A stretch of DNA of 38,124 bases from assembly GCA_030550225.1 (NCBI GenBank), contig JAUQPV010000002.1:1-38124 (forward strand). Direction: 5' to 3'. The notes beneath the pieces are model-generated. The model did no database searches. It was given only the letters and a program-made list of their open reading frames with translations, and had not been told where the DNA came from. Shown piece after piece: positions 249 through 33,792 of the stretch (the stretch's first letter is position 1; each line of letters opens with the position of its first letter). The translations under genes were made by a program, and so were the position numbers. Origin of the DNA: Acidobacteriota bacterium (lineage in GTDB: Bacteria; Acidobacteriota; HRBIN11).

Positions 249-800
249 ATGTCGATTACGGTCACGGGATTGGGCAATCTGTTAATGGGCGATGAAGGCG
301 TGGGCGTCCACGCCGTACGGCTCTTGCGAGAGCGATTCGCCCGACCCGATGTCGCCTACCTCGACGGAGGCACCCTGGGCCTGAGCCTCCTGCCTTACTT
401 GGAGGAGGCAACCCATCTGCTATTCCTGGACGCCATCCGGGCGGACGCCCCGCCTGGGACCGTCCTCCGCGTGTCACTCCTCGACGGACCCACGCGGATC
501 CCCTTGAAGGTCTCAGCCCACGATATCGCCTTGCCCGACCTGGTCGCCCTCCTGAAGTTCCGGCGGGGCGAGGACCTCCGGGCTGTCGAGCTTTTGGGTG
601 TCGTCCCAGAGCGGATCGAACCCTCGACGGAACTTTCCTCGACGGTCCAGGCGAGCTTGCCGGACCTTATCTCTTGGGCCCTTCGAATTCTTCAACAGTG
701 GGGCGTCCTGGATCACCAGAGCCGTTCGGTTCGTGAGAATGGCGTCGAGGCGGTCTTTCCCACCGCCCGAAATAAAGGGCGAACGGCGAATAGCGAATAA
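249..800 (+). CDS. [NiFe]-hydrogenase maturation endopeptidase (HybD/HoxM/HupD family)
   Basis: ATG at 249 follows GGAGG. N-terminal MSITVTGLGNLLMGDEGVGVHA matches the GxGNxLxxDDGxG signature. About 183 aa, and located directly upstream of the hyp genes. Confidence 0.85.
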   Translation: MSITVTGLGNLLMGDEGVGVHAVRLLRERFARPDVAYLDGGTLGLSLLPYLEEATHLLFLDAIRADAPPGTVLRVSLLDGPTRIPLKVSAHDIALPDLVALLKFRRGEDLRAVELLGVVPERIEPSTELSSTVQASLPDLISWALRILQQWGVLDHQSRSVRENGVEAVFPTARNKGRTANSE

Positions 801-878
801 TGAACAGCAAATAGGTACCCCTTCCTACCTCCCGACCTGCCCATCTGCCGACCTGCCGACTGCCCATCTGCCCGATGC
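786..878. repeat. Degenerate tandem word arrays: heptamers GCGAATA-like (786-813), octamers CCNACCTG-like (821-878)
   Basis: Read directly: gcgaata gcgaata atgaaca gcaaata, then cctacctc ccgacctg cccatctg ccgacctg ... cccatctg. The 17-mer CGACCTGCCCATCTGCC (833-849) recurs at 6066-6082. Confidence 0.8.
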
Positions 879-881
879 CTT

Positions 882-912
882 GACCGCCGACGGCCGACCG
901 CGGTCGGCGGTC
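882..912 (+). other. Intercistronic GC hairpin upstream of hypC
   Basis: GACCGCCGAC (882-891) pairs perfectly with GTCGGCGGTC (903-912) around an 11-nt loop. There is no T-run, so it is more likely an mRNA structure than a terminator. Confidence 0.5.
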
Positions 913-945
913 TGGGAAAAATCGTCCTCCCCAGAGGAAGGACCT

Positions 946-1224
946 ATGTGCTTAGGCGTGCCGGGTCGAGTCGTCGAAGTCAACGGCCTCGTGGCCGTCG
1001 TCGATTTCTGGGGGACTCGCCGGAAGGTCCGGCTCGAGACGGTCGACCAGCCGGTTCAACCCGGTGATTACGTCTTGGTCCACGTCGGTTTCGCCATCCG
1101 GCGGATTCCGGAAGAGGAGATCGAGGAAACGCTGGCCTTCTACGACTCCGTCGTGCGGGCGGCTGAGAATGACTTAATGGGTGCAGACGTCCGGAGCGAG
1201 ATCGACGCCGCCCGGGGGGATTGA
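946..1224 (+). CDS. hypC: Hydrogenase assembly chaperone HypC/HupF
   Basis: Starts MCLGVPGRVVEV (invariant N-terminal Cys). 92 aa. RBS GAGGAAGG lies 4-11 nt upstream. Confidence 0.9.
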   Translation: MCLGVPGRVVEVNGLVAVVDFWGTRRKVRLETVDQPVQPGDYVLVHVGFAIRRIPEEEIEETLAFYDSVVRAAENDLMGADVRSEIDAARGD

Positions 1225-1226
1225 CC

Positions 1227-2366
1227 ATGGAAGCGGTCCGCGACGAGGGTGCATGGAAGCGGTTGGAATTTCGGGATCCCGAGCGGGTCCAGGCCCTGCG
1301 GCAGACCCTCCAGCGGCTGTGCGACCAGATCGGGCGGCCCGTATCGGTCATGCACGTCTGCGGGACCCACGAACAGAGTATCGCCCGTTTTGGCCTGCGG
1401 AGCCTCCTCCCCCGGAACCTGAACGTGTTTATGGGGCCCGGCTGTCCCGTCTGCGTGACGGACATGCCGGAGGTCGACGAGGCGGTGGCCCTGGCCCTTC
1501 AGGGCGTCATCGTCGCCACCTTTGGCGACATGTTCCGGGTCCCCGGGAGCGTGATGTCCCTGGCCGAGGCCAAGGCCCAGGGGGCCGACGTGCGGGTCGT
1601 CTACAGTCCCTGGGACGCCCTGCGGCTGGCCCAATCGACGGACCGGGACGTCGTCTTCTTCGCCACGGGCTTCGAGACGACCGCCGTCGCCACGGCCGCC
1701 GTGATCCTATCGAACCCGCCGTCGAACTTCTCGGTCCTGTCGGCCCACAAGTACATCCCGCCGGTCATGGAGATCATCGCCGAGATGCCCGATACCCGGG
1801 TGCAGGGCTTCTTAGCGGCCGGCCATGCGGCGACCATCACGGGGTGGAAGATCTTCGAACGGTTCGTCGAGCGCCACCGGATTCCCGTCGTCGTCGGGGG
1901 GTTCGAGCCCCTCGACATCCTGGCGGCCCTGGCCCAGTTAGTCGAACTCATCCGGGACGGCGACCTGCGGGTCGTCAATGCCTATCCCCGATGCGTCACG
2001 CCAGAAGGAAACCGTCAGGCCCAGCGTCTGCTCTGGGAGGTCTTCGAGACCGTCGGCGGCACCTGGCGCGGCATCGCCCACATCCCGAACGGCAACCTCC
2101 GGATTCGGTCGAAATATGCCGGGGTCGACGCCCGGCGGCGTTACGACATCGACGTGAGCGGCCTTCTGCAGGGAGCGCCGCCCCGGCTCACGCAGGAGTG
2201 CATCTGCGGGGACATCATGGCCGGGATCGCGTCCCCCTACGACTGCCGGCTGTTCGGGAAGGAGTGCACGCCTCAGAACCCCGTCGGAGCCTGCATGGTC
2301 AGTAGCGAGGGGACTTGCAAGATTTGGTACGAATACGGGGGACACGTCATCGTGGAGACTCCTTAG
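1227..2366 (+). CDS. hypD: Hydrogenase maturation factor HypD
   Basis: Motifs CGTHE, GPGCPVCV and GFETT are present. ATG at 1227 lies 3 nt after the hypC stop. An alternative TTG start at 1221 would overlap the hypC stop. Confidence 0.9.
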   Translation: MEAVRDEGAWKRLEFRDPERVQALRQTLQRLCDQIGRPVSVMHVCGTHEQSIARFGLRSLLPRNLNVFMGPGCPVCVTDMPEVDEAVALALQGVIVATFGDMFRVPGSVMSLAEAKAQGADVRVVYSPWDALRLAQSTDRDVVFFATGFETTAVATAAVILSNPPSNFSVLSAHKYIPPVMEIIAEMPDTRVQGFLAAGHAATITGWKIFERFVERHRIPVVVGGFEPLDILAALAQLVELIRDGDLRVVNAYPRCVTPEGNRQAQRLLWEVFETVGGTWRGIAHIPNGNLRIRSKYAGVDARRRYDIDVSGLLQGAPPRLTQECICGDIMAGIASPYDCRLFGKECTPQNPVGACMVSSEGTCKIWYEYGGHVIVETP

Positions 2367-2609
2367 CAGAGCCCTTTGACCCGTGAAAATCCCGATGGGA
2401 TCGGCTTTTCCGACCCTTCGAAAAATCGGTGCTCGGTGCTGGGTGTTGGGTGCTGGGTGTTGGGTGTTGGGTTCTTGAAAAAGGGACCTAACACCTAACA
2501 CCGAGCACCCAGCACCCAACACCAAACACCCATTCTGTCTGAAAAATCGTGCTTCCTGGGCGATGGAAAAGGCCGTCTTAATGCCGCTCTCATGAACTGA
2601 ACGGCCCTG
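2367..2609. repeat. Nested-palindromic repeat element, copy A (inverted relative to copies C and D)
   Basis: Begins CAGAGCC directly after the hypD TAG and ends ...GAACGGCCCTG. Core arms are a GGGTGYT heptamer run (2428-2473) and an RRCACCY run (2487-2531) around a TTCTTGAAAAAGGG loop. Flanking arms are alignable to the copies at 30734, 33488 and 36566. Confidence 0.85.
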
Positions 2610-2618
2610 TTAAGAGGG

Positions 2619-3401
2619 ATGGGGATGACGGGTCGGTTGCGAGTCGTCGTGATGGTCGGTCCCCGGGGCGAGGGTCTCGAGGCCCTGCTGGATTACGGTA
2701 CTCGGTCGCCGGACTATGCGATCGTCGGGGCCTTGGTGACGACCCCTGACAGCACGGCCGTCCCGGTCCTCGAGCGGTATGGCATCCCCTGGGTCTGCAA
2801 TGACATTCAGGCCTTCTACCGGGCGCGCCAGGCACCCGTCCGGGACCTTCAGTATCGACCGGACTACGACGACCAGAGTCTCCGGTACGTCGAGGCTTGG
2901 GCTCCGACGCACTTGGTCCTGTTTCGGTACATTTACATCGTGACGCCGGTCCTCTTGAGCGCCTTTCCCGGCCGGGTCCTGAACGTTCATGACGGGGACC
3001 TCACCCGACGAGACTCCACCGGACGACCCCTCTACCGTGGCCTTCACGCGACCCGGGACGCCATCCTCGACGGGGCGACGGCGACCCGCTCGACCGTGCA
3101 CATCGTCACCGAGGAAGTCGACATGGGTCCGCCGATTTTATTGTCGCCGGCCTATCCGGTCCATCGCCGCCTCGTCCGACAGGCGCGGTGGGCCGGCGCC
3201 CTGGACGTCCTGAAGGCTTACGCATACGCCCATCGGGAATGGATGATTCGGGACAGTTGGGGCAAGCTGATTCATACGGCCCTGACCTTGTGGTCGCAGG
3301 TTCCCTTACGGATCTTGGGCGACCGGGTCTTTTGGGGCGACCGGCCGGGTCCATGGGTCCTCCGGGCTTACATCGCCCGACGGGAGACAGCGGCACCATG
3401 A
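2619..3401 (+). CDS. PurN-type formyltransferase-fold protein (candidate HypX N-terminal-domain equivalent)
   Basis: LRVVVMVGPRGEGLEALLD N-terminus. LNVHDGDL sits where PurN has NIHPSLLP. TVHIVTEEVDMGPPIL matches the PurN VHFVTxxxDxGPII block. An alternative ATG at 2625 has better RBS spacing. The stop overlaps the next start (ATGA). Confidence 0.7.
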   Translation: MGMTGRLRVVVMVGPRGEGLEALLDYGTRSPDYAIVGALVTTPDSTAVPVLERYGIPWVCNDIQAFYRARQAPVRDLQYRPDYDDQSLRYVEAWAPTHLVLFRYIYIVTPVLLSAFPGRVLNVHDGDLTRRDSTGRPLYRGLHATRDAILDGATATRSTVHIVTEEVDMGPPILLSPAYPVHRRLVRQARWAGALDVLKAYAYAHREWMIRDSWGKLIHTALTLWSQVPLRILGDRVFWGDRPGPWVLRAYIARRETAAP

Positions 3402-4264
3402 AGGAAAAAGAAGGTGAGGTCGTCGAAGAACTCTACCACATCCGGGTCACCCGTCGAGACGCCATCGGGGTCATCACCCTGGACCGGCCCGAGCGGTTCA
3501 ACGCCCTGGACGTTCAGATGGCCCAGGACCTGCGCAAGGCGGCCCTCGCCTTGGCGCGAGACCGGACGATCCGATGCGTGATCCTGGCCGGCCACGAGCG
3601 GGTCTTCTGTAGCGGCGCCGACCTTCGGTACGTCCAGCAGGGCGGGGACGAAGCCGACTTCTCCTACCTCCAGCCGGAGGCCCGGGAGGTCCAGAGGAGC
3701 TACGGGGCGGCCTTCAAGCAGATCCTGGAATACCTCCACAGCACGATTTCCGAGATCCGACGGGCGCCCAAGCCCTTCATCGCCGCCGTCCGAGGCGTCG
3801 CCGCCGCCGGCGGCTTCGGCCTGGCGATGAGCTGTGACCTCGTCTATGCCTCGGAGGACGCCTGGTTTGAATGGGCCTATTCGAAAACGGGTCTCACGGG
3901 AGCCGAAAGCTCGACCTTTCTCCTGCCCCGCCTGATCGGCCTCCGGCGGGCCCTCGAGATGGCCTTCCTGAACCCCCGCCTGAGCGCCCAGGAAGCCTGG
4001 TCCCTGGGCCTGATCAACGGCGTCTTCCCCCAGGACCGGTTCGATGAAGAAGTCTGGCGGGTCGCCGAGCGACTCGCCGAAGGACCGACCCGGGCCTTTG
4101 GCATCACGAAGCGCCTCCTCAACGAGGCGGCCGGCATGGACCGTCTGGACGTCCACCTGGATAAGGAACTCCAGTTTCTGGCCGAAATCGCCGAGGGTGC
4201 CGACTTCTGGGAAGGCCTGCGAGCCTTCTTTGAAAAACGGAAGCCCCAGTTTCGGGGAGAGTGA
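3398..4264 (+). CDS. Enoyl-CoA hydratase/isomerase (crotonase) family protein (candidate HypX C-terminal-domain equivalent)
   Basis: ITLDRPERFNAL, FCSGADL and AAVRGVAAAGGFGLAMSCDL are crotonase signatures. ATG 3398 overlaps the upstream TGA (3399-3401). Confidence 0.8.
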   Translation: MKEKEGEVVEELYHIRVTRRDAIGVITLDRPERFNALDVQMAQDLRKAALALARDRTIRCVILAGHERVFCSGADLRYVQQGGDEADFSYLQPEAREVQRSYGAAFKQILEYLHSTISEIRRAPKPFIAAVRGVAAAGGFGLAMSCDLVYASEDAWFEWAYSKTGLTGAESSTFLLPRLIGLRRALEMAFLNPRLSAQEAWSLGLINGVFPQDRFDEEVWRVAERLAEGPTRAFGITKRLLNEAAGMDRLDVHLDKELQFLAEIAEGADFWEGLRAFFEKRKPQFRGE

Positions 4265-4279
4265 TCGTGGGTGTGATGG

Positions 4280-4369
4280 GAATTGCCAATTGCGGATTTG
4301 GGGATAAGAGGTGCAGGTCGGTTCTCCGAGGCTTTCCCCGCCCTGATGCCCAATCCGCAATTCGCAATC
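4280..4369. repeat. Intergenic inverted repeat built from CAATYCG-type heptamers
   Basis: GAATTGCCAATTGCGGATTTGGGG (4280-4303) faces CCCAATCCGCAATTCGCAATC (4349-4369) across a loop of about 45 nt. Confidence 0.75.
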
Positions 4370-4390
4370 TTTGAGATGGAGGGATAGGCG

Positions 4391-5443
4391 ATGGCCGGAA
4401 GCGTCCGATCTCTTCAGTGTCCGGTCCCGACGCTGACCCACCGCCAGGTCCTCCTGGGCCACGGAAGCGGGGGCCGGCTGATGCACGACCTCATCGAGGC
4501 CGTATTCCGCCCCCGGCTCCTGCCGGCGGACCTGACGTGCCTGAACGACGCCGCCTACTTTCGCGTCGCTGGCTTCCGCTTGGCTATCACGACGGATTCC
4601 TTTGTCGTCGACCCTATCTTCTTCCCGGGCGGTGACATCGGCCAACTGGCCGTCCACGGGACCGTCAACGACCTGGCCGTCAGCGGGGCCCGGCCCCTGG
4701 TCCTGAGCGCCGCCTTTATCCTCGAGGAAGGTTTCCCCATCGAGGACCTCGAGCGGGTCGTCGACTCGATGCGCGAGGCCAGCGCTCGGGTCGGCGTGCC
4801 TATCGTCACAGGCGACACGAAAGTCGTCCAACGGGGCAAGTGCGACCGAGTGTTCATCAACACGACGGGCGTCGGCGTCCTGATGACGGAGCGAGTCCTT
4901 TCGGCCGACCAAGCCCGACCGGGGGACCTGATCCTCCTGAATGGGGACATCGCCGCTCACGGCATCGCCATCCTGGCGGCCCGGGGAGAGCTCGAGTTGG
5001 ACACGCCCATCGTCTCGGACACGGCCCCCCTGCATACGTTGGTCGAGGCCATTTTAGAAGGTGACCCCGGGGTCCGTTGCATGCGGGACCTGACGCGGGG
5101 CGGGCTCGCCAGTGCCCTCAACGAAATCGCTCAGAGCTCGGGCGTGGGGATCCGTATCTGGGAAGACCGGATCCCCATTCGGGATGAGGTCCGAGGCGTC
5201 TGTGAGGTCCTGGGGCTCGACCCTTTGCATGTAGCGAACGAGGGAAAGCTGATCGCCGTCGTCGCCCGAGAGGACGCCGAGGCCGTCCTGGCCCGGATGC
5301 GGGCCCACCCCCTCGGTCGGGAGGCGGCCATCATCGGCGAGGTCGTCGAAGACGCCCGGTCGATGGTCCTCATGAAGACTCAAGTCGGGGGCTTCCGGGT
5401 CGTCGACATGCTGGCCGGTGAGCAGTTGCCCCGGATTTGCTAA
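4391..5443 (+). CDS. hypE: Hydrogenase maturation carbamoyl dehydratase HypE
   Basis: PurM-like body with the diagnostic C-terminal ...LPRIC*. RBS GGAGGGA lies 6 nt upstream. Confidence 0.92.
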   Translation: MAGSVRSLQCPVPTLTHRQVLLGHGSGGRLMHDLIEAVFRPRLLPADLTCLNDAAYFRVAGFRLAITTDSFVVDPIFFPGGDIGQLAVHGTVNDLAVSGARPLVLSAAFILEEGFPIEDLERVVDSMREASARVGVPIVTGDTKVVQRGKCDRVFINTTGVGVLMTERVLSADQARPGDLILLNGDIAAHGIAILAARGELELDTPIVSDTAPLHTLVEAILEGDPGVRCMRDLTRGGLASALNEIAQSSGVGIRIWEDRIPIRDEVRGVCEVLGLDPLHVANEGKLIAVVAREDAEAVLARMRAHPLGREAAIIGEVVEDARSMVLMKTQVGGFRVVDMLAGEQLPRIC

Positions 5444-5445
5444 GG

Positions 5446-5545
5446 GGTAGTGAGGCAATAAGGCCGTAAGGCGTGTCGGACAGTCAACCGTAGGGCCCTA
5501 TCTACCGCCTTATTGCCTTACTGCCCTATTGCCTGATTGCCTACT
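5446..5545. repeat. Intergenic inverted repeat built from GCCTNNTT octamers
   Basis: Right arm reads gccttatt gccttact gccctatt gcctgatt gcctactt (5508-5547). Left arm carries the complement words (gaggcaataaggccgtaaggcg, 5452-5473). Confidence 0.75.
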
Positions 5546-5558
5546 TAGGTATGCCATC

Positions 5559-5969
5559 ATGCATGAACTTTCGATCATGCAGGCCTTAGTCGATGCCGTC
5601 GAGGCGATCGTCCGAGAGCATGGGGCCCGGCGGGTCGTCCGGCTGGTCGTCGAGGTCGGCGAAATGTCCAACGTGATTCCCATGTATCTCCGGAATGCCT
5701 TCTTAGCCTTCCGGGAGGTGAAACCCTTCCTGGCCCAGGCCGAGCTGGAGATCCGTTTCGTCCCCCTGCAACTCCGGTGCGAATCCTGCGGCTTTGAGTT
5801 CCAGCCCCAGGGTTATCGATACCGCTGTGTCGAGTGCGGGGCGACCCAGGTCCGGGTCGTGCAGGGCGAGGAATTGCTCTTGCGGGACGTCGAGCTGGAG
5901 GTCGAATCCGATGACCCGTCTTGGCCGGTCGAACTGCCAAGTCATGGGGCCCCACGCTTCTGTGAATGA
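5559..5969 (+). CDS. hypA: Hydrogenase nickel insertion protein HypA
   Basis: Canonical MHELS start. Zinc site CESCG...CVECG. Carries a C-terminal extension of about 20 aa relative to typical HypA. Confidence 0.88.
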   Translation: MHELSIMQALVDAVEAIVREHGARRVVRLVVEVGEMSNVIPMYLRNAFLAFREVKPFLAQAELEIRFVPLQLRCESCGFEFQPQGYRYRCVECGATQVRVVQGEELLLRDVELEVESDDPSWPVELPSHGAPRFCE

Positions 5970-5974
5970 AGGCG

Positions 5975-6090
5975 GATAGGGGCATAACTGTAAGGGCGTG
6001 AGGACGGGACGGTCACCGGCGGCGTCAGGACAGAGGGGACGTCCGCGTCACTGCTGGCGTCCCGCCGACCTGCCCATCTGCCCAAGACCG
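5975..6090. repeat. Degenerate G-rich / C-rich octamer arms
   Basis: ggcggata ggggcata ... ggcgtgag gacgggac faces cccgccgacctgcccatctgcccaagacc. The C-rich arm shares the 17-mer CGACCTGCCCATCTGCC (6066-6082) with 833-849. Confidence 0.55.
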
Positions 6091-6131
6091 TGATTTGTCC
6101 CAGAGATGGCCGGACTGCTAAGAGGGAAGCG

Positions 6132-6803
6132 ATGGCGGAGATTCGAACCGTTCGAGTGATGGAAAGCCTCCTGAAGGCCAACGACTACGTGGCCCAACGC
6201 CTCCGGCAGGCGTGGGACCAGGGCCAGACTTTCGTCGTCAACCTGATATCGGCCCCGGGCGCCGGCAAGACGACCCTGCTGGAGGCGACCCTGCCGGTCC
6301 TGCTGAGCCGGTACCGCGTCGGCGTCCTGGAGGGCGACATCGAGACGGAGCGGGACGCCGAGCGGATCCGGGCCTTGGGCGTCGAGGCCGTCCAGGTCAC
6401 GACGGGCGGGACCTGTCACCTGGAAGCGCCCATGGTCGAGCAGGCCTGGCGCCTTATGGATAACGAGATCGACTTTCTGTTCATCGAGAACGTGGGTAAC
6501 CTCGTGTGTCCGGCGAGCTTCGACCTGGGGGAGCACCTCCGGGTCGTCCTGCTCTCGGTCCCCGAGGGGGATGACAAACCGGCCAAGTACCCCAAGGCCT
6601 TCCGGACAGCCCAGGCCCTGGTCATCACGAAGGCCGACCTGCTGGAGACGATGGACTTCTCGGTCGAGCGAGCCCGCCGGGAGGCCTTGGAGATTCAGCC
6701 CGAACTTCAGGTCTTCGTCGTGTCGGCCAAGACGGGCGTGGGGATTCCGGCATGGACGCAATTCCTGGAACAGCGACGACGGCAGACGTTTCCGGACGCT
6801 TGA
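6132..6803 (+). CDS. hypB: Hydrogenase nickel incorporation GTPase HypB
   Basis: APGAGKTTLL P-loop, GGTCHL and ENVGNLVCP motifs. ATG 6132 is preceded by AGAGGGAAG. A GTG at 6090 is also possible. No His-rich or CxxCGC N-terminus. Confidence 0.9.
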   Translation: MAEIRTVRVMESLLKANDYVAQRLRQAWDQGQTFVVNLISAPGAGKTTLLEATLPVLLSRYRVGVLEGDIETERDAERIRALGVEAVQVTTGGTCHLEAPMVEQAWRLMDNEIDFLFIENVGNLVCPASFDLGEHLRVVLLSVPEGDDKPAKYPKAFRTAQALVITKADLLETMDFSVERARREALEIQPELQVFVVSAKTGVGIPAWTQFLEQRRRQTFPDA

Positions 6804-9076
6804 GCGTCGAGCGCCTTCAAGTCCGAGTCCTGGGGGTCGTCCAGGGCGTCGGGTTCCGGCCCTTTGTGTATCGTCTGGCCTCAGAGTTGGGCCTGACGGG
6901 TTGGGTCAGTAACGACGGCCTCGGCGTCCTCATCGAGGTCGAGGGCCCGTCCCCGGCCCTCTTGGAATTCCTGGGACGTCTCCCCCGGGAGAAGCCGCCG
7001 CCGGCCTTTCTCTACGCCATCGACCATCGATTCCTCGAGCCCGTCGGATATTCGATTTTTACGATCCGGGAGAGTCAGCTTGGCGAAGCTCGCCGGGTCT
7101 GGGTCCTACCGGATTTGGCCGTCTGCGCCGCCTGTCGCCGAGAGGTCTTGGACCCGAGCGACCGTCGGTTCCGGTACCCCTTCACGAACTGCACCCACTG
7201 CGGCCCCCGGTTCACGATCATCGAGGACCTCCCCTACGATCGGCCCCGCACGTCCATGAAGGCTTTTCGGATGTGTCCCGATTGTGAACGGGAGTATCAC
7301 GACCCGAAGGACCGTCGGTTTCACGCCCAACCCAATGCCTGCCCCCGATGCGGGCCCCATCTGGAGTTCCGCACGCCTGACGGGACGCCTGTCGCCTGGG
7401 GCGACGAAGCCTTCTACCTGGCGGCCGAGAAGGTCCGGACCGGGGCGATCATCGCCCTGAAGGGTCTCGGCGGCTACCACTTGATCGTGGACGCCCGGAA
7501 CGAGCCGGCTGTCGCACGTCTTCGGGCTCGCAAGCGTCGGCCTTTCAAAGCGTTCGCCGTCATGTATCCCGACCTGGAGACCCTGCGTCGTCACGTGGAG
7601 GTCCCGTCTTTTGCGGAAGCCCTCCTGACGTCGCCGCAGGCGCCCATCCTGCTTCTGCCCCGGACGCCCGCCGGATGGCGGGAGATCGCACCCTCGGTCG
7701 CACCCCGGTCCCCCTACTTAGGCGTTTTCCTGCCCTACACGCCCCTGCACATCTTACTCCTGTACGAACTGGGCTTCCCCGTCGTGGCGACGTCGGGGAA
7801 CCTCTCCGACGAGCCGGTCCAGTATCGAGACGAGGAGGCCCTCCAGGCCCTGGCGGACCTCTGTGATGGCTTCCTCCTGCACGACCGACCGATCGTCCGC
7901 CATGCCGACGACTCGGTCCTTCAGGTCATCACCCGGCCCCGGGCCAAGCCCCAGATCCTGCGGCGGGCCCGGGGCTACACACCCCTGCCGGTCCTGGCGC
8001 CCCGCCCGCTCCCGCCCCTCCTCGCCCTGGGCGGTCACATGAACGCGACCTTCGCCCTGAGCCGGGACCGGGAGATCATCCTCTCCCAGCATATCGGCGA
8101 CCTGGATGGCTATGAGGCCCGTCAGGTCTACCGGCGGACGTTAGAGGACTTCTTACGCCTCTACGACGTTCATCCCCAGGCCGTTGTCCACGACCTCCAC
8201 CCGGACTATTTCACGACGCGCTTGGCTGAGGAGTGGGGTGGGCCCCGATTCGCCGTCCAGCACCACCACGCCCACCTGGCGGCCTGTATGCTGGAAAACC
8301 AGCTCGAAGGGACCGTCCTGGGCCTCACGTGGGACGGGACTGGCTATGGCCTGGACGGCACCGTATGGGGCGGAGAATTTCTGATGGGCGACCCCCGGGA
8401 TTTTCGGCGTGTCGCTTCCCTGTGGCCCTTCCGCCTCCCCACAGGCGAAAAGGCCGTCCGGGAACCCTGGCGGGTCGCCCTGGCCCTCTTATGGGAGAGC
8501 TTTGGGTCGGACTTTCCCCGAGACCTTCCCTTGTTCCGGGAGATTCCGAAGCGGGCCGTCGAACTCGTCTTGCAGGTCCTTCGGAAGGGCCTTCTGAGCC
8601 CCGTCACGACCAGCATGGGCCGTCTCTTCGACGGCGTCAGCGCCCTGCTCGGCATCTCTTTCTTCAACACCCATCAGGCCCAGTCGGCCCAACTCCTGGA
8701 GTACGCCGCCTGGCAGTATGGCCCGGGGGCGCATCCTCTTCCCCTTCCCCTCCGGGAGGCCGACATCCTGCGGCTGGATTGGCGAGAACTCATCCGAGCC
8801 CTGGTCGATCGATTCCGGCGGGGCGCTCCCCCGGAAGCCCTGGCGGCCGCCTTCCACGACGCCCTCGTCCGGGCCGCCGTGGCCGTCGCCGAGCGCCTCG
8901 GCGTCCCAAGGGTCGTGATGGCCGGCGGCGTGTTCTGCAACCGCTATCTCACGGAGGCCCTCCTGACCGAACTGGAGGCGCGAGGTCTCCAGGGTTTCAT
9001 CCACACCCAGCTCCCTCCGACGGACGGGAGCCTCGCCGTCGGCCAACTGTGGGTCGCCGCCCATCGCCTCGAATAG
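6752..9076 (+). CDS. hypF: Carbamoyltransferase HypF
   Basis: Acylphosphatase-like VQGVGFRPFVYRLA. Two zinc-finger pairs (CAACRREV...CTHCGPRF and CPDCEREY...CPRCGP). YrdC- and Kae1-like C-terminal parts. A TTG at 6800 that overlaps the hypB stop is an alternative start. Confidence 0.9.
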   Translation: MDAIPGTATTADVSGRLSVERLQVRVLGVVQGVGFRPFVYRLASELGLTGWVSNDGLGVLIEVEGPSPALLEFLGRLPREKPPPAFLYAIDHRFLEPVGYSIFTIRESQLGEARRVWVLPDLAVCAACRREVLDPSDRRFRYPFTNCTHCGPRFTIIEDLPYDRPRTSMKAFRMCPDCEREYHDPKDRRFHAQPNACPRCGPHLEFRTPDGTPVAWGDEAFYLAAEKVRTGAIIALKGLGGYHLIVDARNEPAVARLRARKRRPFKAFAVMYPDLETLRRHVEVPSFAEALLTSPQAPILLLPRTPAGWREIAPSVAPRSPYLGVFLPYTPLHILLLYELGFPVVATSGNLSDEPVQYRDEEALQALADLCDGFLLHDRPIVRHADDSVLQVITRPRAKPQILRRARGYTPLPVLAPRPLPPLLALGGHMNATFALSRDREIILSQHIGDLDGYEARQVYRRTLEDFLRLYDVHPQAVVHDLHPDYFTTRLAEEWGGPRFAVQHHHAHLAACMLENQLEGTVLGLTWDGTGYGLDGTVWGGEFLMGDPRDFRRVASLWPFRLPTGEKAVREPWRVALALLWESFGSDFPRDLPLFREIPKRAVELVLQVLRKGLLSPVTTSMGRLFDGVSALLGISFFNTHQAQSAQLLEYAAWQYGPGAHPLPLPLREADILRLDWRELIRALVDRFRRGAPPEALAAAFHDALVRAAVAVAERLGVPRVVMAGGVFCNRYLTEALLTELEARGLQGFIHTQLPPTDGSLAVGQLWVAAHRLE

Positions 9077-9379: not shown

Positions 9380-10168
9380 ATGGACTGGCAAGAGGGCTTC
9401 CAGCGTTATCTGGTCCGCTACCCGAAGGGCGAGATGATTTTCAACGAAGGGGACCTGGGCAACGAGATGTACGTCATCCAGTCCGGGAAGGTCCGCATAT
9501 TCAAGAACATCAACGGCATGGACCAGACGCTGGCCGTCTTGGAAAAGGGTGACTTCTTCGGGGAAATGGCCGTCTTAGAGGGTATCCCCCGCACGGCCTC
9601 CGCCGAGGTCGAGGAAGATTGCGAGCTGATTCGCATCAACAGCGCCAACTTCGTGGCCATGATCCAGGCGAATCCCGAGATCGCCCTCCGTATCATGCGG
9701 AAGCTCTCGATCCGTCTTCGGGAGACGACCGACCAACTCCAGCGGCTCCTGCAGGTCTCGACGGCCGTCTTTTCGAGCTACGACGCCCCGCCTGTGCAGG
9801 TCGCCCCTGAGCCGCCCAAGGAGGAGAAGCGCAAGGCCATTGCCCATCTGGTCTCGGCGGCGACAGGCCGGACGTATCCCATCACGAAAGAAGTCACGAT
9901 CATCGGTCGCTACGACAAGGTCACGGGCCTGTCCCCGGACGTGGACCTCACGGAGGAGGACCCCCACCGGTACGTCTCCCGCCGCCACGCCGTCCTTCTC
10001 TACGAGGAGGGCCAGTGGAAGCTGATCGAGGAGATCGGAGCCGTCAACGGGACATTCCTGAATAAGAAGCGGCTCCCGAACGGCGTGCCCGTCTCTATCC
10101 GGGACGGCGACCAGGTCACCTTCGCCAACGTGACCCTGACGTTCCGGGTCGTCCAAGACGAGGGCTGA
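9380..10168 (+). CDS. Cyclic-nucleotide-binding domain / FHA domain fusion protein
   Basis: N-terminal cNMP-binding signature FGEMAVLEGIPRTASAEV. C-terminal FHA signatures TIIGR...SRRHAVL...NGTFLN. RBS GAGAAGGG. Visibly lower GC than its neighbours. Confidence 0.8.
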   Translation: MDWQEGFQRYLVRYPKGEMIFNEGDLGNEMYVIQSGKVRIFKNINGMDQTLAVLEKGDFFGEMAVLEGIPRTASAEVEEDCELIRINSANFVAMIQANPEIALRIMRKLSIRLRETTDQLQRLLQVSTAVFSSYDAPPVQVAPEPPKEEKRKAIAHLVSAATGRTYPITKEVTIIGRYDKVTGLSPDVDLTEEDPHRYVSRRHAVLLYEEGQWKLIEEIGAVNGTFLNKKRLPNGVPVSIRDGDQVTFANVTLTFRVVQDEG

Positions 10169-10181
10169 CCGGACGTCAGCC
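10163..10181. terminator. Short hairpin spanning both stop codons of the convergent genes
   Basis: GGCTGAC (10163-10169) pairs with GTCAGCC (10175-10181) around a 5-nt loop. TGA 10166-10168 and TCA 10176-10178 each lie in one arm. No T-run. Confidence 0.35.
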
Positions 10182-11798
10182 GGCCGGTCGTGCCTCGGCC
10201 CGCAGGACGTACTTCAGGATCTTCCCCTGGGGGTTCTTGGGAAGTTCATCCCGAAACTCGACGAGGCGGGGGTACTTGTAATTGGCCAGGCGGTCCCGAC
10301 AGAAGGCGATCAGCTCCTCGGCCGATACCCGACCCCGAAATTCCGGCCGCAGGACGACGACGGCCTTGACCGTCTCGCCCCGATAGGGGTCGGGGACGCC
10401 GATGACGGCCGCCTCCAGGACGGCCGGATGCTCCAGCAGGACGCCCTCGACCTCTCGGGGCCACACCTTGAAGCCGGACACGTTGATGATGTCCTTCCGG
10501 CGCTCGATCCAATAGACCCACCCCTGGGCGTCCATCTTGCCCAGGTCGCCCGTATAGAGCCATCCTTCCCGAAGTGTCTGAGCCGTCTCCTCGGGCTTGT
10601 TCCAGTAGCCCTTGAACACGTGAGGTCCCCGGGCGACGATCTCGCCGACCTCGCCGGTCAGTCGGGGCTGACCCGTCTCGGGGTCGACGATGCGAACCTC
10701 GCTCCCGGGAATCGGCCGGCCGACGGACAGAGCCCCCGTCTCGGGGTCGACGGGGGCCCGTTCCCCGAGGGGCGTCCATGTGCCGGGCGAGGTCGTTTCA
10801 GTCATCCCCCATACATTGTGAATGTAGACGCCGGTCGCTCGCTCCCACCGCTCGACGACGGCCGGCTGGACGGGCGCGCCGCCGCTGAAGACCTTCCGAA
10901 GTGTACGAAGACGCCCCGGGTCGAAGGCCTCCGAGTTCATCATGGCGATGAAGGCTGTGATAGAGCCGATAACAAAGGTCGCACCCCGTCGCTCGGTCTG
11001 GCGGATCGCCTCGTCGGCCTGGAATCGGTACAGCAGGACCATCGGGATCCCGACGTGGCAAGCGGCGGCAATGTGGCCGACCGTGCCCGTGATGTGAAAC
11101 AGAGGAGCAACCGCCAGGACACAGTCGTCTTCCGTGAGGCCGCAGAGACGCTCGTAGGTCCGAGCATTGAATAGCAGGTTGCCGTGAGTGATCATGGCAC
11201 CCTTGGGGGGTCCCGTCGTCCCAGACGTGTAATGAAGATAGGCCACGTCGTCGGTGCCCAAGGCGATCGGCTCGGGGACCCGGTCAGCGTATCGGGTGAC
11301 CAGGTCCCGGTAGGTCCATCCCCTTTCGGGCGGGCCGCCTTCCGGTGGCGGGATTATGTCCGGTAGGGGAGCTTGCAAGTCGAGGTGGTCATAAGGAGAA
11401 GTCGTGACGACAAATCGGACGCCGGCCCGCTCGGCGATGGACTGGACCCAGGAGACGTCCCGCTGTTGGCACACGAGGCCGACAGCCCCGGCGTCTTCCA
11501 GATGGTAGGTCAGCTCCCGCTCCTTGAACATGATGTTAAGGGGGACGACGATCCCACCGGCTTTCCAGACGGCAAAATGGGTCACGACGGCGGCCGGTTC
11601 GTTTTGCAGGAAGACGGCGACCCGGTCGCCCCGCTGGAGGCCCAGGTCCCGCAGGGCGACGGCCAGAGCGTTGCTTTCCGCCTCGAGGGTCCTGTAGTCC
11701 AGGGTCCGGTCAAAGTAGTGAATGGCCGGACGGTCCGGCCGACGGGAAGCCTGAAGCCTCAGCAAATCGACCATGGAGGCTACCCGGATTTCTTCCAT
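10176..11798 (-). CDS. AMP-dependent acyl-CoA synthetase/ligase
   Basis: YTSGTTGPPKGAMITHGNL AMP-binding motif, GWLYTGDLG and WPREVE motifs. 540 aa. Confidence 0.88.
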   Translation of the reverse strand: MEEIRVASMVDLLRLQASRRPDRPAIHYFDRTLDYRTLEAESNALAVALRDLGLQRGDRVAVFLQNEPAAVVTHFAVWKAGGIVVPLNIMFKERELTYHLEDAGAVGLVCQQRDVSWVQSIAERAGVRFVVTTSPYDHLDLQAPLPDIIPPPEGGPPERGWTYRDLVTRYADRVPEPIALGTDDVAYLHYTSGTTGPPKGAMITHGNLLFNARTYERLCGLTEDDCVLAVAPLFHITGTVGHIAAACHVGIPMVLLYRFQADEAIRQTERRGATFVIGSITAFIAMMNSEAFDPGRLRTLRKVFSGGAPVQPAVVERWERATGVYIHNVWGMTETTSPGTWTPLGERAPVDPETGALSVGRPIPGSEVRIVDPETGQPRLTGEVGEIVARGPHVFKGYWNKPEETAQTLREGWLYTGDLGKMDAQGWVYWIERRKDIINVSGFKVWPREVEGVLLEHPAVLEAAVIGVPDPYRGETVKAVVVLRPEFRGRVSAEELIAFCRDRLANYKYPRLVEFRDELPKNPQGKILKYVLRAEARPAG

Positions 11799-17350: not shown

Positions 17351-18262
17351 TTAGAAGGAGTAACCCAGGTGAATCCGGAAGTCCAGATGGGATTGGGCCG
17401 GACCGTTCTTTCCGGACAGGGTAAAGCCGTGCGGATACCACTCGTCCTGCAGACCGACGAGGACCCAAGTGAGGAAGAACTTCCCGTAAGACAGGGTCAC
17501 CGACGGGAGCAGGGTCCACTGATGGCCGTCCGTGTTGGGGACTTCCCGGCCGTTGAGTTTGGTCGGGCCGAATCCGCGACGGCGGACCTGCAGGTCGACC
17601 GTCAGGCTCGTCTTCTCCCCGATGGGGTAGCTATACGTGACGCCGACCGTAGGGACTGTCAAGTCGCCGGGGTCGACCTCATCCTCGCCGTCTTGGTGGA
17701 CCAGGGTCATGATGTAGTAGGTACCGCCGTAGACGGTCAGCGAGCCCTTCGGGAGACTGAGGGGGTACTTCACGGTGCCGTTCAGGATGATCTCGTCGCT
17801 CTGGTTCGTCGCCGAGATCCGACCCGGCTCGACGGGCCGAGGCGCAAGGTCGAAGACGTAAGCCCCCGTAAGGTTAAAGTACTTGGTGCTCAAGGTCCCG
17901 TAGGTCCAGAACCAGAAGGGGACGAGGCCGCTGGAGACGGTCGTTCCACTGGTGGTCACCTTCACGTTGCCGAACAGGGTCAGGGCCCCGACGGTGAAAG
18001 CCGGGCTCAGCTCGTCAGCCACGCCCTTGACCGGCGTCGTGTATTGCGCCAGGGCGAACCAATAGGGGACCTCGATTTTAAAGGTGGGGTCGGGTCGGTA
18101 TTTGGTACCGCCGGCGTCATACAGCTCATTGATGGTCACTGTACTGGCGGCGACCAGGACCGTCCACTGGGCCTGGCTGGAGACGGCCGTTCCGGTCAGG
18201 AAGACGGCCGCCAAGACCAATGCGCGAGCGCCGCGCCACGGAAGCCGTCGATGGACTTTCAT
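17351..18262 (-). CDS. Outer-membrane beta-barrel protein (family not identified)
   Basis: Signal peptide MKVHRRLPWRGARALVLAAVFLTGTAVSSQAQ. Alternating amphipathic strands rich in Y/T/G. C-terminal ...HLGYSF* with terminal Phe. ATG 18262 is preceded by GGAGGGGG. Confidence 0.6.
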   Translation of the reverse strand: MKVHRRLPWRGARALVLAAVFLTGTAVSSQAQWTVLVAASTVTINELYDAGGTKYRPDPTFKIEVPYWFALAQYTTPVKGVADELSPAFTVGALTLFGNVKVTTSGTTVSSGLVPFWFWTYGTLSTKYFNLTGAYVFDLAPRPVEPGRISATNQSDEIILNGTVKYPLSLPKGSLTVYGGTYYIMTLVHQDGEDEVDPGDLTVPTVGVTYSYPIGEKTSLTVDLQVRRRGFGPTKLNGREVPNTDGHQWTLLPSVTLSYGKFFLTWVLVGLQDEWYPHGFTLSGKNGPAQSHLDFRIHLGYSF

Positions 18263-18397
18263 AGCCCCCTCCAAAAGGTAAAGTCCAATATGCAGGCCAC
18301 TCAGGCAGTCGGGCGACCCGATAAGCCGGCCCGTGACATGTCTCCATGACCTAAACATCTTATCATCGGCCGGATTGTAAGGAATCCTATTTACCTG

Positions 18398-28962: not shown

Positions 28963-30723
28963 TCATGGTGGGGCGACTCGACGGGCCTTTTGGCAGACCT
29001 CTTCGGCCTCGGCCCAGGCCCGGGGGTAGCCTGGGTCCTCGGGGCTCATGCAGGCCAGGACTTGAATGCGTGTATCACAGGCCTGAATCCACGCCTGCTG
29101 GGCCTCCGCCACTGCTGCCTGCCGTCGGAGGGCCTGGACCTGGGTGGGCGTCATTGAGCAAGTCGGTGGAACGGCCGGGACCGGTAGGCCCTCCGGATGC
29201 CGGAGGACATCGGAGCTCGGGAGTACCGGCGGGGTACCCGACGTTTGGAAGACCCGAGCGCCTCCATAGAAGAGAGCCGCACCGATGAGCAGGCCGACCA
29301 AGCCGGCCACCGCCCAGGCCCTCTTCGACATCCGACCCGGTCCCGTCGAGCCGTCAGGCACCGCCGGTTCGGCCGCCGGGACCTCGGGTACGGGTTGAGG
29401 TTCCACCCGAGTCATGATGGCTCGCAGACGGATGTCCAGGTCCTGGAGATAATCTACGGCAGAGCCCACGACGGGGGCCCGATTCCACTCAAGCTGTTTC
29501 CAGGCGTTCCAGGCGTCCAACAGACGCCCCTGGGCTAAAGCTGATTCCATCTCGGAGCGCCATCGGGGAAAGGCCGCCGAAGGCTTCTCTCGCAGGGACG
29601 GCCCGGCCGGACGGGAGGCTTCGGAAGACGTCCAAGGTTCAGGCGTCGGGGGCTCCAGAGGTCCACCCCGAAAGCTCTGCACCACACGAGACCGTCGTTC
29701 TTCGACCCAACTTTCCTGGGCCAGGCCCTGCGCGACCCAGGGGTCAAAACGTTGGAGGACTTCGTGAAACCACAGAGCGGCTTCTTCATCTCGGTCTCGT
29801 AAGGCCCGAAACCGCCACTCCTTGATCTGGTTTTCCATCTGGCGGCGATAGTCTGCGTAATACCCTTGGGGGTCGCGAAAGAACCGCTGAAGATGGGCTT
29901 CGTCGGCTTCGAGGCTGACCCGCCGGTACAGGCGGTTCAGCGACCGAGCCAGGGCCGTCAGGTCTGGCCGATTCAGTTCCAGCAGACTCCGGACCCAGGC
30001 GTCCAATTCGCCAGGGAGCCAGGGGACCACGGCCTGTAAGGGAAGCCGCAGGGTCCACACGGGCGGACCGGACTTGTCTTGGACCCACGGCCATCGGCCC
30101 GTCAGCAGAAAATAAGCCGTCACGCCGAGGCTGTAAGTGTCCCACCGACGGCCGGTCGGGACCTCGGTTTCGGACGTGCCCGAAAGCCCGCCCAGGCGGG
30201 CCACCTCCCAGGGACACGCAAAGCCATAGGCCGACGCATAACCTGGGGCGACGACCGGCGGGACGATCCGGACTTGACCGGTCTCGTCCAGGAAAATGGT
30301 CGAAAGACCCAGCCGACCGTGACTGGCTTCCCGGCGGCCCGCCTCGTCCATGCGGTGATAGAATTCCTGAAGTCCTCGGAGGACCTGCTCCAGGACCATG
30401 CAGGCCACGGGCCATGGGAATAGAGGGACGTGCGAAAAGAACTGATCGAGGGGCTGGAGCCGGCCTGCCTCGAAGACCACGTAAAGGTCCAGACCCTCAT
30501 GAAAGCGACCGGCCGGCCGGAGAAAGACGGAAGGTGGCAAGCCCTGCCAGTAGTCCAAAAGCTCTTCGATGGATCGCCGAAAAGCCTCGTGGAAGTAATC
30601 GAACCGAAGGACCCGCCAGATGCGGACGGGGACACCCTCCTGGACGTCCAGCGCCTCCCAGAGCTCCCCGACCGTCGTCCGTCGGGTCACCCGGGCGTCA
30701 CGGTAGCGTGTCCACGGGTTCAT
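28963..30723 (-). CDS. Membrane-anchored Hanks-type pseudokinase with Cys-containing C-terminal domain
   Basis: Kinase-fold remnants: SHGRLGLSTIFLDETGQVRI where HRDLKPxNILLD is expected, ACPWEVARLG (APE-like), DTYSLGVTAYFLLTGRWPW. Transmembrane segment AWAVAGLVGLLIGAALFYGGA. Start MNPWTRY at 30723. The track ORF extension runs through repeat B and the neighbouring gene. Confidence 0.6.
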   Translation of the reverse strand: MNPWTRYRDARVTRRTTVGELWEALDVQEGVPVRIWRVLRFDYFHEAFRRSIEELLDYWQGLPPSVFLRPAGRFHEGLDLYVVFEAGRLQPLDQFFSHVPLFPWPVACMVLEQVLRGLQEFYHRMDEAGRREASHGRLGLSTIFLDETGQVRIVPPVVAPGYASAYGFACPWEVARLGGLSGTSETEVPTGRRWDTYSLGVTAYFLLTGRWPWVQDKSGPPVWTLRLPLQAVVPWLPGELDAWVRSLLELNRPDLTALARSLNRLYRRVSLEADEAHLQRFFRDPQGYYADYRRQMENQIKEWRFRALRDRDEEAALWFHEVLQRFDPWVAQGLAQESWVEERRSRVVQSFRGGPLEPPTPEPWTSSEASRPAGPSLREKPSAAFPRWRSEMESALAQGRLLDAWNAWKQLEWNRAPVVGSAVDYLQDLDIRLRAIMTRVEPQPVPEVPAAEPAVPDGSTGPGRMSKRAWAVAGLVGLLIGAALFYGGARVFQTSGTPPVLPSSDVLRHPEGLPVPAVPPTCSMTPTQVQALRRQAAVAEAQQAWIQACDTRIQVLACMSPEDPGYPRAWAEAEEVCQKARRVAPP

Positions 30724-30733
30724 ATTCGCCTGA

Positions 30734-30948
30734 CACAGCCGTTCGGTCCATGAGAATCCTGATGGATTCGGCTTTTCCGACCCTTCGAGAAATCGGTGTT
30801 CGGTGTGGGGTATTGGGTTCTTGAAAAAGGGCCTGAAACCTAACACCCAACACCTGACACCCGTCCTCCGCCTTGCTTGAAAAATCGCCATCCTCCCAGG
30901 GTCGGCAGGGCTGAATCCATCCGGGTTCTCACGGGCTAAACGGCTCTG
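30734..30948. repeat. Nested-palindromic repeat element, copy B (variant)
   Basis: CACAGCCGTTCGGTCCATGAGAAT... to ...GGGTTCTCACGGGCTAAACGGCTCTG. Shorter heptamer core (ggtgttcggtgtggggtattgggtt / aacctaacacccaacacctgacaccc). Confidence 0.85.
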
Positions 30949-31700
30949 CTCATCTCGAAAAGGGCCTGGAGGCGTCGGACCTCTTCTTCGTCGATGAGGT
31001 CGACGGGAAGAGTCGCCCACGTCCATCCGAAGACAGTCCCGAAACCGACTTGCAGGGCTTCTCGCAAGTCCCGAAGGGACGGTATCCCGCCACATACCTC
31101 CCGGAGCGTCGTGAAGGCCGGCCGGAAGAGGCCCGGTCGGAAGACCGCCGCCAGCCGGAAGTCGAAGTCCAACAAGATCGACCCATGCTGAAGGACGACC
31201 GAACGGCCCCATCGCTGAGCGCTCCCGATCAGTTTACGACCGTCGACCGTGATTTCATAGTGCGCCGTCTCGGCAAAACAGAAGCCCTCGAGTCGACCGG
31301 CCGGCCGGGCCGGTCGGGCGATGTCGGCTCGCGGGAGGCCCAACCGATGAAGGGCTGTCTGCAGGGCTTGGCTGATGCGCTCGTAGGCCTCCAAGGGCTT
31401 AGCCACCCCCAGTTGAGCCGGCGTGGCAATGACGCTGTATGTGAGTTCGTGATGATGTAGGACGGCCGCCCCACCGGTCGGGCGCCGGACGACGTCTACG
31501 CCGAGGTCCTGACAGGCTTTCGGGTCTACGACCCTCTCCGCCGTCTGATGGTACCCCAGGGACACCGTGGGCCGGACCCACTGGTAGAACCGCACGACCG
31601 GCGGCCGGTCCGGCCCCTGGGTCTTCCATAGCCAGAAGTCCAGGGCCATGTTCCAGGCGCCGGTCCGGGGGTCGTCTTGCAAAAGGTAAGCCACCGACAT
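30936..31700 (-). CDS. Lipoate/octanoate-protein ligase family protein (LplA/LipM-like catalytic domain only)
   Basis: RRPTGGAAVLHHHELTYS (RRxSGGGAVxHD-like) and GRKLIGSAQRW (conserved Lys) motifs. 254 aa. Starts 7 nt after the ATP-grasp gene. Confidence 0.75.
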   Translation of the reverse strand: MSVAYLLQDDPRTGAWNMALDFWLWKTQGPDRPPVVRFYQWVRPTVSLGYHQTAERVVDPKACQDLGVDVVRRPTGGAAVLHHHELTYSVIATPAQLGVAKPLEAYERISQALQTALHRLGLPRADIARPARPAGRLEGFCFAETAHYEITVDGRKLIGSAQRWGRSVVLQHGSILLDFDFRLAAVFRPGLFRPAFTTLREVCGGIPSLRDLREALQVGFGTVFGWTWATLPVDLIDEEEVRRLQALFEMSRAV

Positions 31701-32757: not shown

Positions 32758-32764
32758 TCGGTTC

Positions 32765-33502: not shown

Positions 33503-33732
33503 GAATGGCGTCGGAACGACCTTTTCCATCGCCCGGGAAGCACGATGTTTCAGACAGAATGGGTGTCGGGTGTTGGGTGCTGGGTGCTCGGTATTAGGTG
33601 TTAGGTCCCTTTTTCAAGAACCCAACACCCAACACCTAACACCCAGCACCCAGCACCCAGCACCGAGCACCGATTTTTCGAGGGGTCGGAAAGGCTGAAT
33701 CCATACGGGTTTCCACGAACCGAACGGCTCTG
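33488..33732. repeat. Nested-palindromic repeat element, copy C
   Basis: CAGATCGGCCCGTGAGAATGGCGTC... to ...CCACGAACCGAACGGCTCTG. GT-heptamer arm 33561-33605, AC-heptamer arm 33620-33671. Confidence 0.85.
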
Positions 33733-33792
33733 CTAACACACAGAACCAACATCGATGATCACTGAGACTCGGCACATAGGACTCGGGACCCG

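Follow-up and report, generated by a model that had tools for sequence, protein, structure and literature searches.

A formyltransferase-crotonase gene pair in the hyp operon of an Acidobacteriota bacterium is a probable two-protein analogue of the CO-ligand enzyme HypX

HypX is the sole enzyme known to synthesise the CO ligand of [NiFe] hydrogenases, and it is limited to some aerobic H2 oxidisers (PMC12134894). Its N-terminal module, HypX-N, is Fmt/FDH/ArnA-like and carries an OB subdomain, which helps to hold coenzyme A (CoA); HypX-N and the FDH hydrolase domain both transfer a formyl group to a pantetheine thiol (PMC6802093). In the C-terminal crotonase module, HypX-C, a tyrosine and a glutamate stand beside the CoA thiol (Tyr416 and Glu426 in Aquifex, Tyr439 and Glu449 in Cupriavidus necator), and mutants in these residues are HypX-minus (PMC6802093). 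A review from 2025 on how the [NiFe] cofactor is made mentions the fused HypX alone (PMC12134894). Here we describe two adjacent open reading frames (ORFs), ORF1 and ORF2, that lie inside the hydrogenase maturation (hyp) operon of an Acidobacteriota bacterium. They are found on a stretch of 38,124 nucleotides (positions 1 to 38,124 of contig JAUQPV010000002.1, assembly GCA_030550225.1), which we call the window.

ORF1 (2619..3401, + strand) encodes a formyltransferase and ORF2 (3398..4264, + strand) a stand-alone crotonase. An earlier note on this DNA had placed two co-directional ORFs between hypD and hypE, and the coordinates confirm this. The two are joined by an ATGA stop/start overlap at 3398..3401 (+ strand), in which the ATG of ORF2 (3398-3400) runs over the TGA of ORF1 (3399-3401), as expected for translational coupling. 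We propose that ORF1 and ORF2 probably form a two-protein functional analogue of HypX, making the CO ligand of the [NiFe] site. The best explanation of the sequence comparisons below is that the crotonase module has a specific relationship to the C-domain of HypX, and that the formyltransferase module was drawn from a different branch of its superfamily than HypX-N.

ORF2 has 288 residues, from the ATG at 3398 to 4264. That it is a crotonase, as the earlier note had it, is borne out by Pfam ECH_1 (1.3e-53; 182 bits, cutoff 27) and by the presence of both oxyanion-hole motifs. FCSGADL is located at residues 70-76 and AAVRGVAAAGGFGLAMSCDL at 129-148; the oxyanion-hole motifs FCSGADL and AAAGGFG are invariant across the ORF2 family. 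The family is tight, with 65-99% identity among the best 120 database matches. ORF2 stays under every NCBIfam crotonase cutoff, the best score being 188 against 351 bits, while the PaaG model TIGR02280 gives 180 bits against a cutoff of 345.

The catalytic positions set this family apart. Tyr161 and Glu170 are invariant, both in the database homologues (120 of 120) and in the genes taken from the surveyed loci (137 of 137). Tyr161 sits, without exception, in the column of the canonical hydratase Glu144. The column of the second hydratase glutamate, Glu164, corresponds to residue 187, which varies between Glu, Gly and Asp; both hydratase numbers follow the rat enoyl-CoA hydratase. The catalytic glutamate pair of enoyl-CoA hydratases is absent from the ORF2 family, and the column of the PaaG catalytic Asp136 holds Ala169 in ORF2.

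Tyr161 and Glu170 of ORF2 align to Tyr439 and Glu449 of C. necator HypX in BLAST, in a family MAFFT alignment and in hhalign. The BLAST match covers 205 residues at 30% identity (E 5e-15), and hhalign of the ORF2 family with HypX-C gives 99% probability over 235 columns (E 3e-18). The equivalence of Tyr161 with the HypX tyrosine is robust, being consistent in four of four alignments. For Glu170 the equivalence with the HypX glutamate is very likely, although it is alignment-dependent. Neither a Tyr nor a Glu is found at these columns in E. coli PaaF, PaaG, MenB or CaiD, in a paralogue from locus L040 or in 2EJ5.

Profile searches from the HypX side agree with this. A hidden Markov model (HMM) of HypX-C scores the ORF2 family at 58-67 bits, with ORF2 itself at 67, compared to 17-30 bits for six other crotonases. 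In phmmer with ReHypX, method and database size being matched, ORF2 obtains 45.5 bits and the best PDB crotonase 36.2. By these scores the ORF2 family is closer to HypX-C than any other tested crotonase. The AlphaFold2 model of ORF2 (mean predicted local distance difference test, pLDDT, 84.9) reaches template modelling (TM) scores up to 0.95 in Foldseek, and HypX is not among its top 50 matches. At the fold level this test fails to separate HypX-like from generic members, whereas the HypX-side HMM ranking does. Two features are the family's own: an insertion of ~20 residues at ~82-101, and the invariant Glu158 and Trp159, which are not in HypX.

ORF1 has 260 residues when read from 2619 and 258 from the ATG at 2625. 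The latter is probably the true start, since a Shine-Dalgarno-like AAGAGGG is located at 2611-2617 and the closest database homologues have 258 residues. Pfam assigns it to Formyl_trans_N (PF00551) at 9.5e-13. The motifs quoted in the earlier note are all present: in ORF1 these are LNVHDGDL at 121-128, TVHIVTEEVDMGPPIL at 159-174 and the TRRDSTGR insertion, in ORF2 the two named above. The PurN-type Asn-His...Asp arrangement seen there also stands: Asn122, His124 and Asp168 align with Asn106, His108 and Asp144 of PurN, and are conserved in 73, 77 and 76 of 77 family sequences, respectively. The folate-loop block (VHxVTxxxDxGP) is kept. Further, the alignment of ORF1 with E. coli PurN spans the whole length (27% identity, E 8e-18). 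Its AlphaFold2 model (pLDDT 94.5) has PurN and PurU as best Foldseek matches and shares the PurN fold over the full length, with target-normalised TM scores of 0.8-0.85. The top 50 are all PurN, PurU, ArnA or Fmt chains; HypX is absent.

By its sequence, ORF1 is a PurN-class paralogue and not PurN itself. This follows from four observations: a sub-cutoff score, a replaced loop, a changed motif and a family-specific helix. Against the NCBIfam PurN model (TIGR00639) ORF1 scores 62.2 bits, below the curated cutoff of 150.1. The GNGSN loop after strand 1 of PurN binds the phosphate of glycinamide ribonucleotide (GAR). In ORF1 this loop reads GPRGE, the family consensus being xRxxG, and it contains the near-invariant Arg16. 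HPSLL of PurN is HDxDL in the ORF1 family, with Asp125 and Asp127 as family-specific residues, and an invariant KAYAYAHREWM (199-209) lies on the C-terminal helix.

ORF1 is longer than PurN through insertions at 67-77, at 129-136 and within the helices at 183-227. The C-terminal extension of about 80 residues described in the earlier note is therefore not an extension: it corresponds to the C-terminal helix and hairpin that PurN itself has, made longer by insertions. No OB subdomain was found in ORF1 by Pfam, in the AlphaFold2 model or in the PurN alignment. The ORF1 family comprises ~200 sequence clusters, all of them single-domain proteins of roughly 180-335 residues, and among its close members (104-335 residues) there is no fusion of an ORF1-type formyltransferase to a crotonase. 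Longer matches (442-1845 residues) were considered as such fusions and rejected, as they share the catalytic core only (E ~1e-14 to 1e-19) and come from other families.

The relationship to HypX differs between the two proteins. With the HMM of HypX-N the scores are 29 bits for ArnA-N, 16 for PurN and 7 or less for the ORF1 family; with that of the ORF1 family they are 84 bits for PurN, 20 for ArnA-N and 3 for HypX-N. In hhalign the ORF1 family matches HypX-N at 68% probability over 87 columns, with the catalytic His out of register. In the profile comparison that the earlier note had in mind, the ORF1 family falls on the PurN side, and the HypX-C HMM ranks the ORF2 family above the other crotonases tested. 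The best 120 homologues of HypX are all fused and have 566-639 residues.

How the two genes are arranged in other genomes was surveyed from both sides. A scan seeded with the ORF1 family, with one genome per species, gave 80 loci, every one from a metagenome-assembled genome (MAG). The hosts are Gemmatimonadota and Acidobacteriota, including Thermoanaerobaculia, together with one member of Nitrospiria and one of Actinomycetes. In essentially all of the 80 species genomes the formyltransferase adjoins hypD or hypE, so that the co-occurrence of the pair with hyp genes, raised in the earlier note, holds in relatives. A pur context was seen in none of these 80 loci. The crotonase directly follows the formyltransferase in all but one. 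That locus, L075, has an ORF1-family gene (10001-10603) flanked by hypF and hypB; neither a crotonase nor hypCDE lies within 10 kb of it.

The prevailing gene order, in ~70 loci, is hypC, hypD, hypE, formyltransferase, crotonase; the order of the window, with the pair between hypD and hypE, is found in ~7. At 60 of 78 formyltransferase-crotonase junctions there is a 4-nt NTGA stop/start overlap, and at two more an overlap of 1 nt. In C. necator the slot of hypX is directly after hypE, which is where most relatives carry the pair. No fused hypX was present within 10 kb in any fetched locus, whichever gene was used for seeding. The pairing of formyltransferase and crotonase in hyp operons is far beyond chance.

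Seeding with the crotonase, in three look-ups and a scan of Joint Genome Institute (JGI) metagenomes, shows a wider distribution. There are at least 590 copies of ORF2-type crotonases in the JGI metagenomes, and 83 loci among the matches listed were analysed. Hyp genes adjoin the crotonase in 80 of these 83; the other three are short contigs with only the formyltransferase and the crotonase. Both genes are present in 23 of the listed loci and eight have too little upstream sequence, while 52 of the 75 informative ones have no formyltransferase adjacent to the crotonase. Here the order is either hypC, hypD, crotonase, hypE or hypC, hypD, hypE, crotonase, hypA, hypB; examples are L091 (7001-7819), L093 (7001-7864) and many of L095-L173. 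One crotonase-only locus belongs to an Anaerolineae MAG and stands beside an apparent soluble multi-subunit hydrogenase.

A divergent formyltransferase hidden in the gaps between hypD and the crotonase was considered and rejected: the gaps hold small unrelated ORFs instead. The one in L151 has a 174-residue ORF that is not a formyltransferase. In L112 (4920-5610) ORFs of 68, 76 and 99 residues lie between hypD and the crotonase, and by eye these seem toxin-antitoxin-like.

Loci with and without the formyltransferase are intermixed inside the same crotonase clusters, so there have been repeated gains, losses or moves of the formyltransferase gene. The core hyp-linked gene is the crotonase, since it is hyp-linked in 80 of the 83 listed loci and lacks an adjacent formyltransferase in 52 of them. 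An obligate heterodimer of ORF1 and ORF2 is not required by the locus data.

In the proposed mechanism, ORF1 would transfer the formyl group of N10-formyl-tetrahydrofolate (THF) to the thiol of CoA, giving formyl-CoA. ORF2 would then convert formyl-CoA to CO and CoA by means of Tyr161 and Glu170, in the manner of HypX-C, and the CO would be handed to the Fe on the HypC-HypD scaffold. With translational coupling the two proteins would be co-produced, and they may form a complex. Such a complex is not required, because many relatives have the crotonase alone in the hyp operon. The same loci imply that ORF2 could take formyl-CoA from solution, so that a single shared cavity is not demanded by the chemistry. 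The earlier note had also raised a formyl donor linked to tetrahydromethanopterin (H4MPT) or methanofuran. We reject this for want of support: the mch and ftr genes of the window are ~30 kb away and no other examined locus carries them. A formate-THF ligase adjoins the locus in one genome only.

Several observations weigh against a HypX-like role for the pair. When the search starts from ORF2, PaaG-like crotonases come out much nearer than HypX-C, both in sequence and for the AlphaFold2 model, and the Tyr/Glu common to ORF2 and HypX might be convergent. This asymmetry between the two directions of search is what would be expected if HypX-C were a fast-evolving relative of an ORF2-like crotonase. 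Glu170 falls on the HypX glutamate in three of four alignments; in the fourth, which has more outgroups, it is off by one, because HypX has one extra loop residue and the gap is placed differently. By the profile scores ORF1 is not orthologous to HypX-N: HypX combines PF00551, PF02911 and a crotonase, whereas ORF1 is PurN-class, without OB subdomain and without linker. The 52 loci with no adjacent formyltransferase belong here too, and given such loci the substrate of ORF2 might be something other than formyl-CoA. Finally, the linked hydrogenases do not show the six-cysteine motif that O2-tolerant enzymes of group 1d have at the proximal cluster, and for this reason a specifically aerobic need for the ORF1/ORF2 route is no more than a possibility.

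A broader reading, which we put forward tentatively and hold to be possible rather than probable, centres on the crotonase. The hyp-linked crotonase would be a free-standing formyl-CoA decarbonylase, the ancestral core of HypX and a widespread supplier of the CO ligand, working with a PurN-derived partner or alone. If this is true, the crotonase of over half the loci sampled uses formyl-CoA pooled in the cell, and the hosts would span uncultured Acidobacteriota, Gemmatimonadota, Chloroflexota, Nitrospirota and others. The formyl-CoA route to CO would then be far wider than HypX, and would have been put together on at least two occasions, with different formyltransferases. It may even reach organisms where the source of CO is still an open question.

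The alternative that survives best, though we regard it as unlikely, is that the pair serves hydrogenase maturation through other chemistry. ORF2 could hydrolyse, isomerise or carry formyl-CoA or another acyl-CoA, or the target of ORF1 could be a protein or a small molecule other than CoA. The strict hyp linkage fits this too. Globally ORF2 is nearest to PaaG-type isomerases, its Glu158/Trp159 and ~20-residue insertion have no counterpart in HypX, and the formyltransferase is dispensable in the crotonase-only loci. On the other hand, CO synthesis is the only missing step of [NiFe]-cofactor assembly known to use both folds (PMC12134894). The Tyr/Glu pair matches residues essential in HypX, and the column of the PaaG aspartate is an alanine (Ala169). 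A function in CO-ligand synthesis remains the reading we prefer.

The earlier note had suggested a literal split HypX, with two fission products forming an obligate heterodimer that rebuilds a single CoA cavity. Much of the observation behind it stands: a hyp-linked and usually coupled pair (60 of 78 junctions), with both superfamily folds, in the order of HypX and in the hypX position, whose crotonase is specifically HypX-C-like. What does not stand is the fission itself, as the formyltransferase module comes from a different branch of the superfamily. ORF1 belongs to another formyltransferase class by the reciprocal HMM scores, reaches only 68% in hhalign and is without the OB subdomain; HypX is absent from both Foldseek top 50s. 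In addition, the best 120 HypX homologues are all fused, no fused ORF1-type form was found among the close ORF1 family, and many hyp loci have the crotonase alone. We therefore find a literal split HypX highly improbable.

Last, although the best named matches and automatic annotations are PurN and PaaG-like, an accidental presence in the operon of a housekeeping PurN and a crotonase of beta-oxidation or phenylacetate degradation is practically excluded by the membership tests on ORF1 and ORF2 (62 against 150 and 180 against 345 bits, the GAR loop lost, hydratase and isomerase catalytic residues absent) and by hyp synteny, which is kept across several phyla in ~160 loci, pur and paa neighbours being absent.

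The operon that contains the pair spans 249-9076 on the + strand of the window. It opens with a HycI/HoxM-like hydrogenase maturation endopeptidase (249..800, +), the translation of which begins MSITVTGLGNLLMGDEGVG. In relatives the homologue of this endopeptidase is placed after the genes for the [NiFe] small subunit, large subunit and cytochrome b, and here the hydrogenase structural genes would be located upstream of it, beyond the edge of the window. Next come hypC (946..1224, +; beginning MCLGVPGRV) and hypD (1221..2366, +), with identities to HypC and HypD (Pfam HypD) of related loci of 57-92% and 64-97%, respectively. After ORF1 and ORF2, assigned by Pfam and alignments together with AlphaFold2/Foldseek for ORF1 and the HypX-C HMM for ORF2, follows hypE (4391..5443, +), its product being 43-96% identical to HypE (AIRS/AIRS_C) of related loci. 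The operon continues with hypA (5559..5969, +), hypB (6090..6803, +) and hypF (6752..9076, +), all identified by comparison with related loci. A promoter and terminator scan gave background level only.

The nearest genome is an Acidobacteria MAG, L007, whose operon proteins are 89-97% identical to those of the window. In L007 the operon genes come after those for the hydrogenase small subunit, large subunit and cytochrome b. The small subunit of L007 (4314-5348) has FQDCAGNTES as its proximal-cluster motif, with Asn in place of the second Cys, which suggests an unusual cluster ligation. In most related loci the motif is the usual (L/M)QECTGC(V/T)ES. Immediately downstream of hypF, the window encodes a protein with cyclic nucleotide (cNMP)-binding and FHA domains (9380-10168, +), and in L005 a cNMP-binding gene is likewise found near the hyp cluster.

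The spacers around the pair carry repeats. Between hypD and ORF1 there is a heptamer hairpin, (GGTGYTG)n/(CARCACC)n, at 2424..2534 (no strand assigned). Its predicted RNA fold has an energy of -84 kcal/mol (z -9.5), and a direct repeat of 9 bp, GAAAAATCG, stands on either side of it (2420-2428 and 2541-2549). The corresponding spacer in L007 is only ~80 bp. The hairpin is likely an inserted repeat element that lies outside the enzyme system. Further intergenic heptamer hairpins occur at 33560-33673 and 36643-36736, the pattern having 26 matches against 0 expected. The spacer between ORF2 and hypE is filled by an inverted repeat (4282..4368, no strand assigned) with 20-nt arms, 90% complementary and 47 nt apart; in L007 this spacer is ~24 bp. 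Rfam gave no match anywhere in the window, hairpins included.

Elsewhere in the window, an H4MPT-linked cluster of one-carbon (C1) genes lies at 31708-37874 on the - strand, with no conserved linkage to the hyp operon. It consists of genes for an ATP-grasp protein (31708-32784), mch (33793-34740), ftr/fhcD (35618-36544) and a GHMP-kinase-like gene (36873-37874), all on the - strand. Two ORFs on the same strand, at 28963-31212 (749 residues) and 17351-18358 (335 residues), have no Pfam match at 1e-5. The shorter of these overlaps an opposite-strand ORF of 326 residues, which makes its reality uncertain.

The earlier note was aware of no described split form of HypX, and we likewise found no description of a two-gene or crotonase-only HypX in the full-text literature, where subscription papers are mostly outside coverage. 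As far as we found, a HypX-like CO-ligand module made of separate proteins, present in many uncultured soil bacteria, is apparently undescribed. In a plasmid collection there is no close homologue of ORF2; together with the origin of all formyltransferase-seeded loci from MAGs, this may explain why the form went unnoticed.

With the catalytic residues of HypX, the conserved hyp-linked crotonase is a concrete candidate, open to test, for the synthesis of CO in several phyla that abound in soil and sediment. The loci also offer a natural experiment on whether the two activities of HypX depend on a common CoA cavity, and they could supply smaller, separable parts for heterologous hydrogenase production. 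In addition, misleading automatic annotations as PurN and PaaG are corrected.

Compared with known systems, ORF1 shares with PurN (E. coli, 1CDE) the full-length fold, the Asn-His-Asp catalytic residues and the folate block VHxVTxxxDxGP. In contrast to PurN it scores below the cutoff, has GNGSN replaced, carries HDxDL, the insertions and KAYAYAHREWM, and its family is found in hyp operons and never with pur genes. FDH (hydrolase domain), Fmt and ArnA-N, the relatives of HypX-N, are users of N10-formyl-THF with a His/Asp catalytic pair, and the formyl transfer of FDH to a phosphopantetheine thiol is the chemistry proposed for ORF1. Unlike Fmt, FDH and ArnA-N, ORF1 is without the OB-fold C-terminal subdomain and it is much nearer to PurN.

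ORF2 has its best matches in PaaG-type crotonases (3HRX, 6SL9, 4FZW_C) and in the hydratases 2EJ5 and 3P5M, at E 1e-44 to 1e-39 and with TM scores up to 0.95. The PaaG-type enzyme is 1,2-epoxyphenylacetyl-CoA isomerase. Common to both are the oxyanion-hole motifs and a C-terminal helix folded back on its own subunit. In ORF2, by difference, Ala169 takes the place of the PaaG Asp136 and Tyr161 that of the hydratase Glu144, and paa or fatty-acid neighbours are absent.

The closest functional counterpart would be HypX/HoxX (C. necator; Aquifex aeolicus, 6J0P-6J1J), the formyl-THF-dependent CO synthase of aerobic [NiFe]-hydrogenase maturation. HypX is one chain of about 560-640 residues, whereas here there are separate proteins of 260 and 288 residues, or the crotonase alone. 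Of the HypX triad His74/Asp80/Asp109 only a His and an Asp are found in ORF1, in the PurN arrangement, and ORF2 differs from HypX by its ~20-residue insertion and the invariant Glu158-Trp159. The hosts also differ, being Acidobacteriota, Gemmatimonadota, Nitrospiria and Chloroflexota MAGs. What the systems have in common is a formyltransferase-superfamily module followed by a crotonase module, encoded in a hyp operon and, in most relatives, beside hypE. As in HypX-C, the hydratase Glu is replaced by a Tyr in the crotonase, with a Glu following after 9-10 residues.

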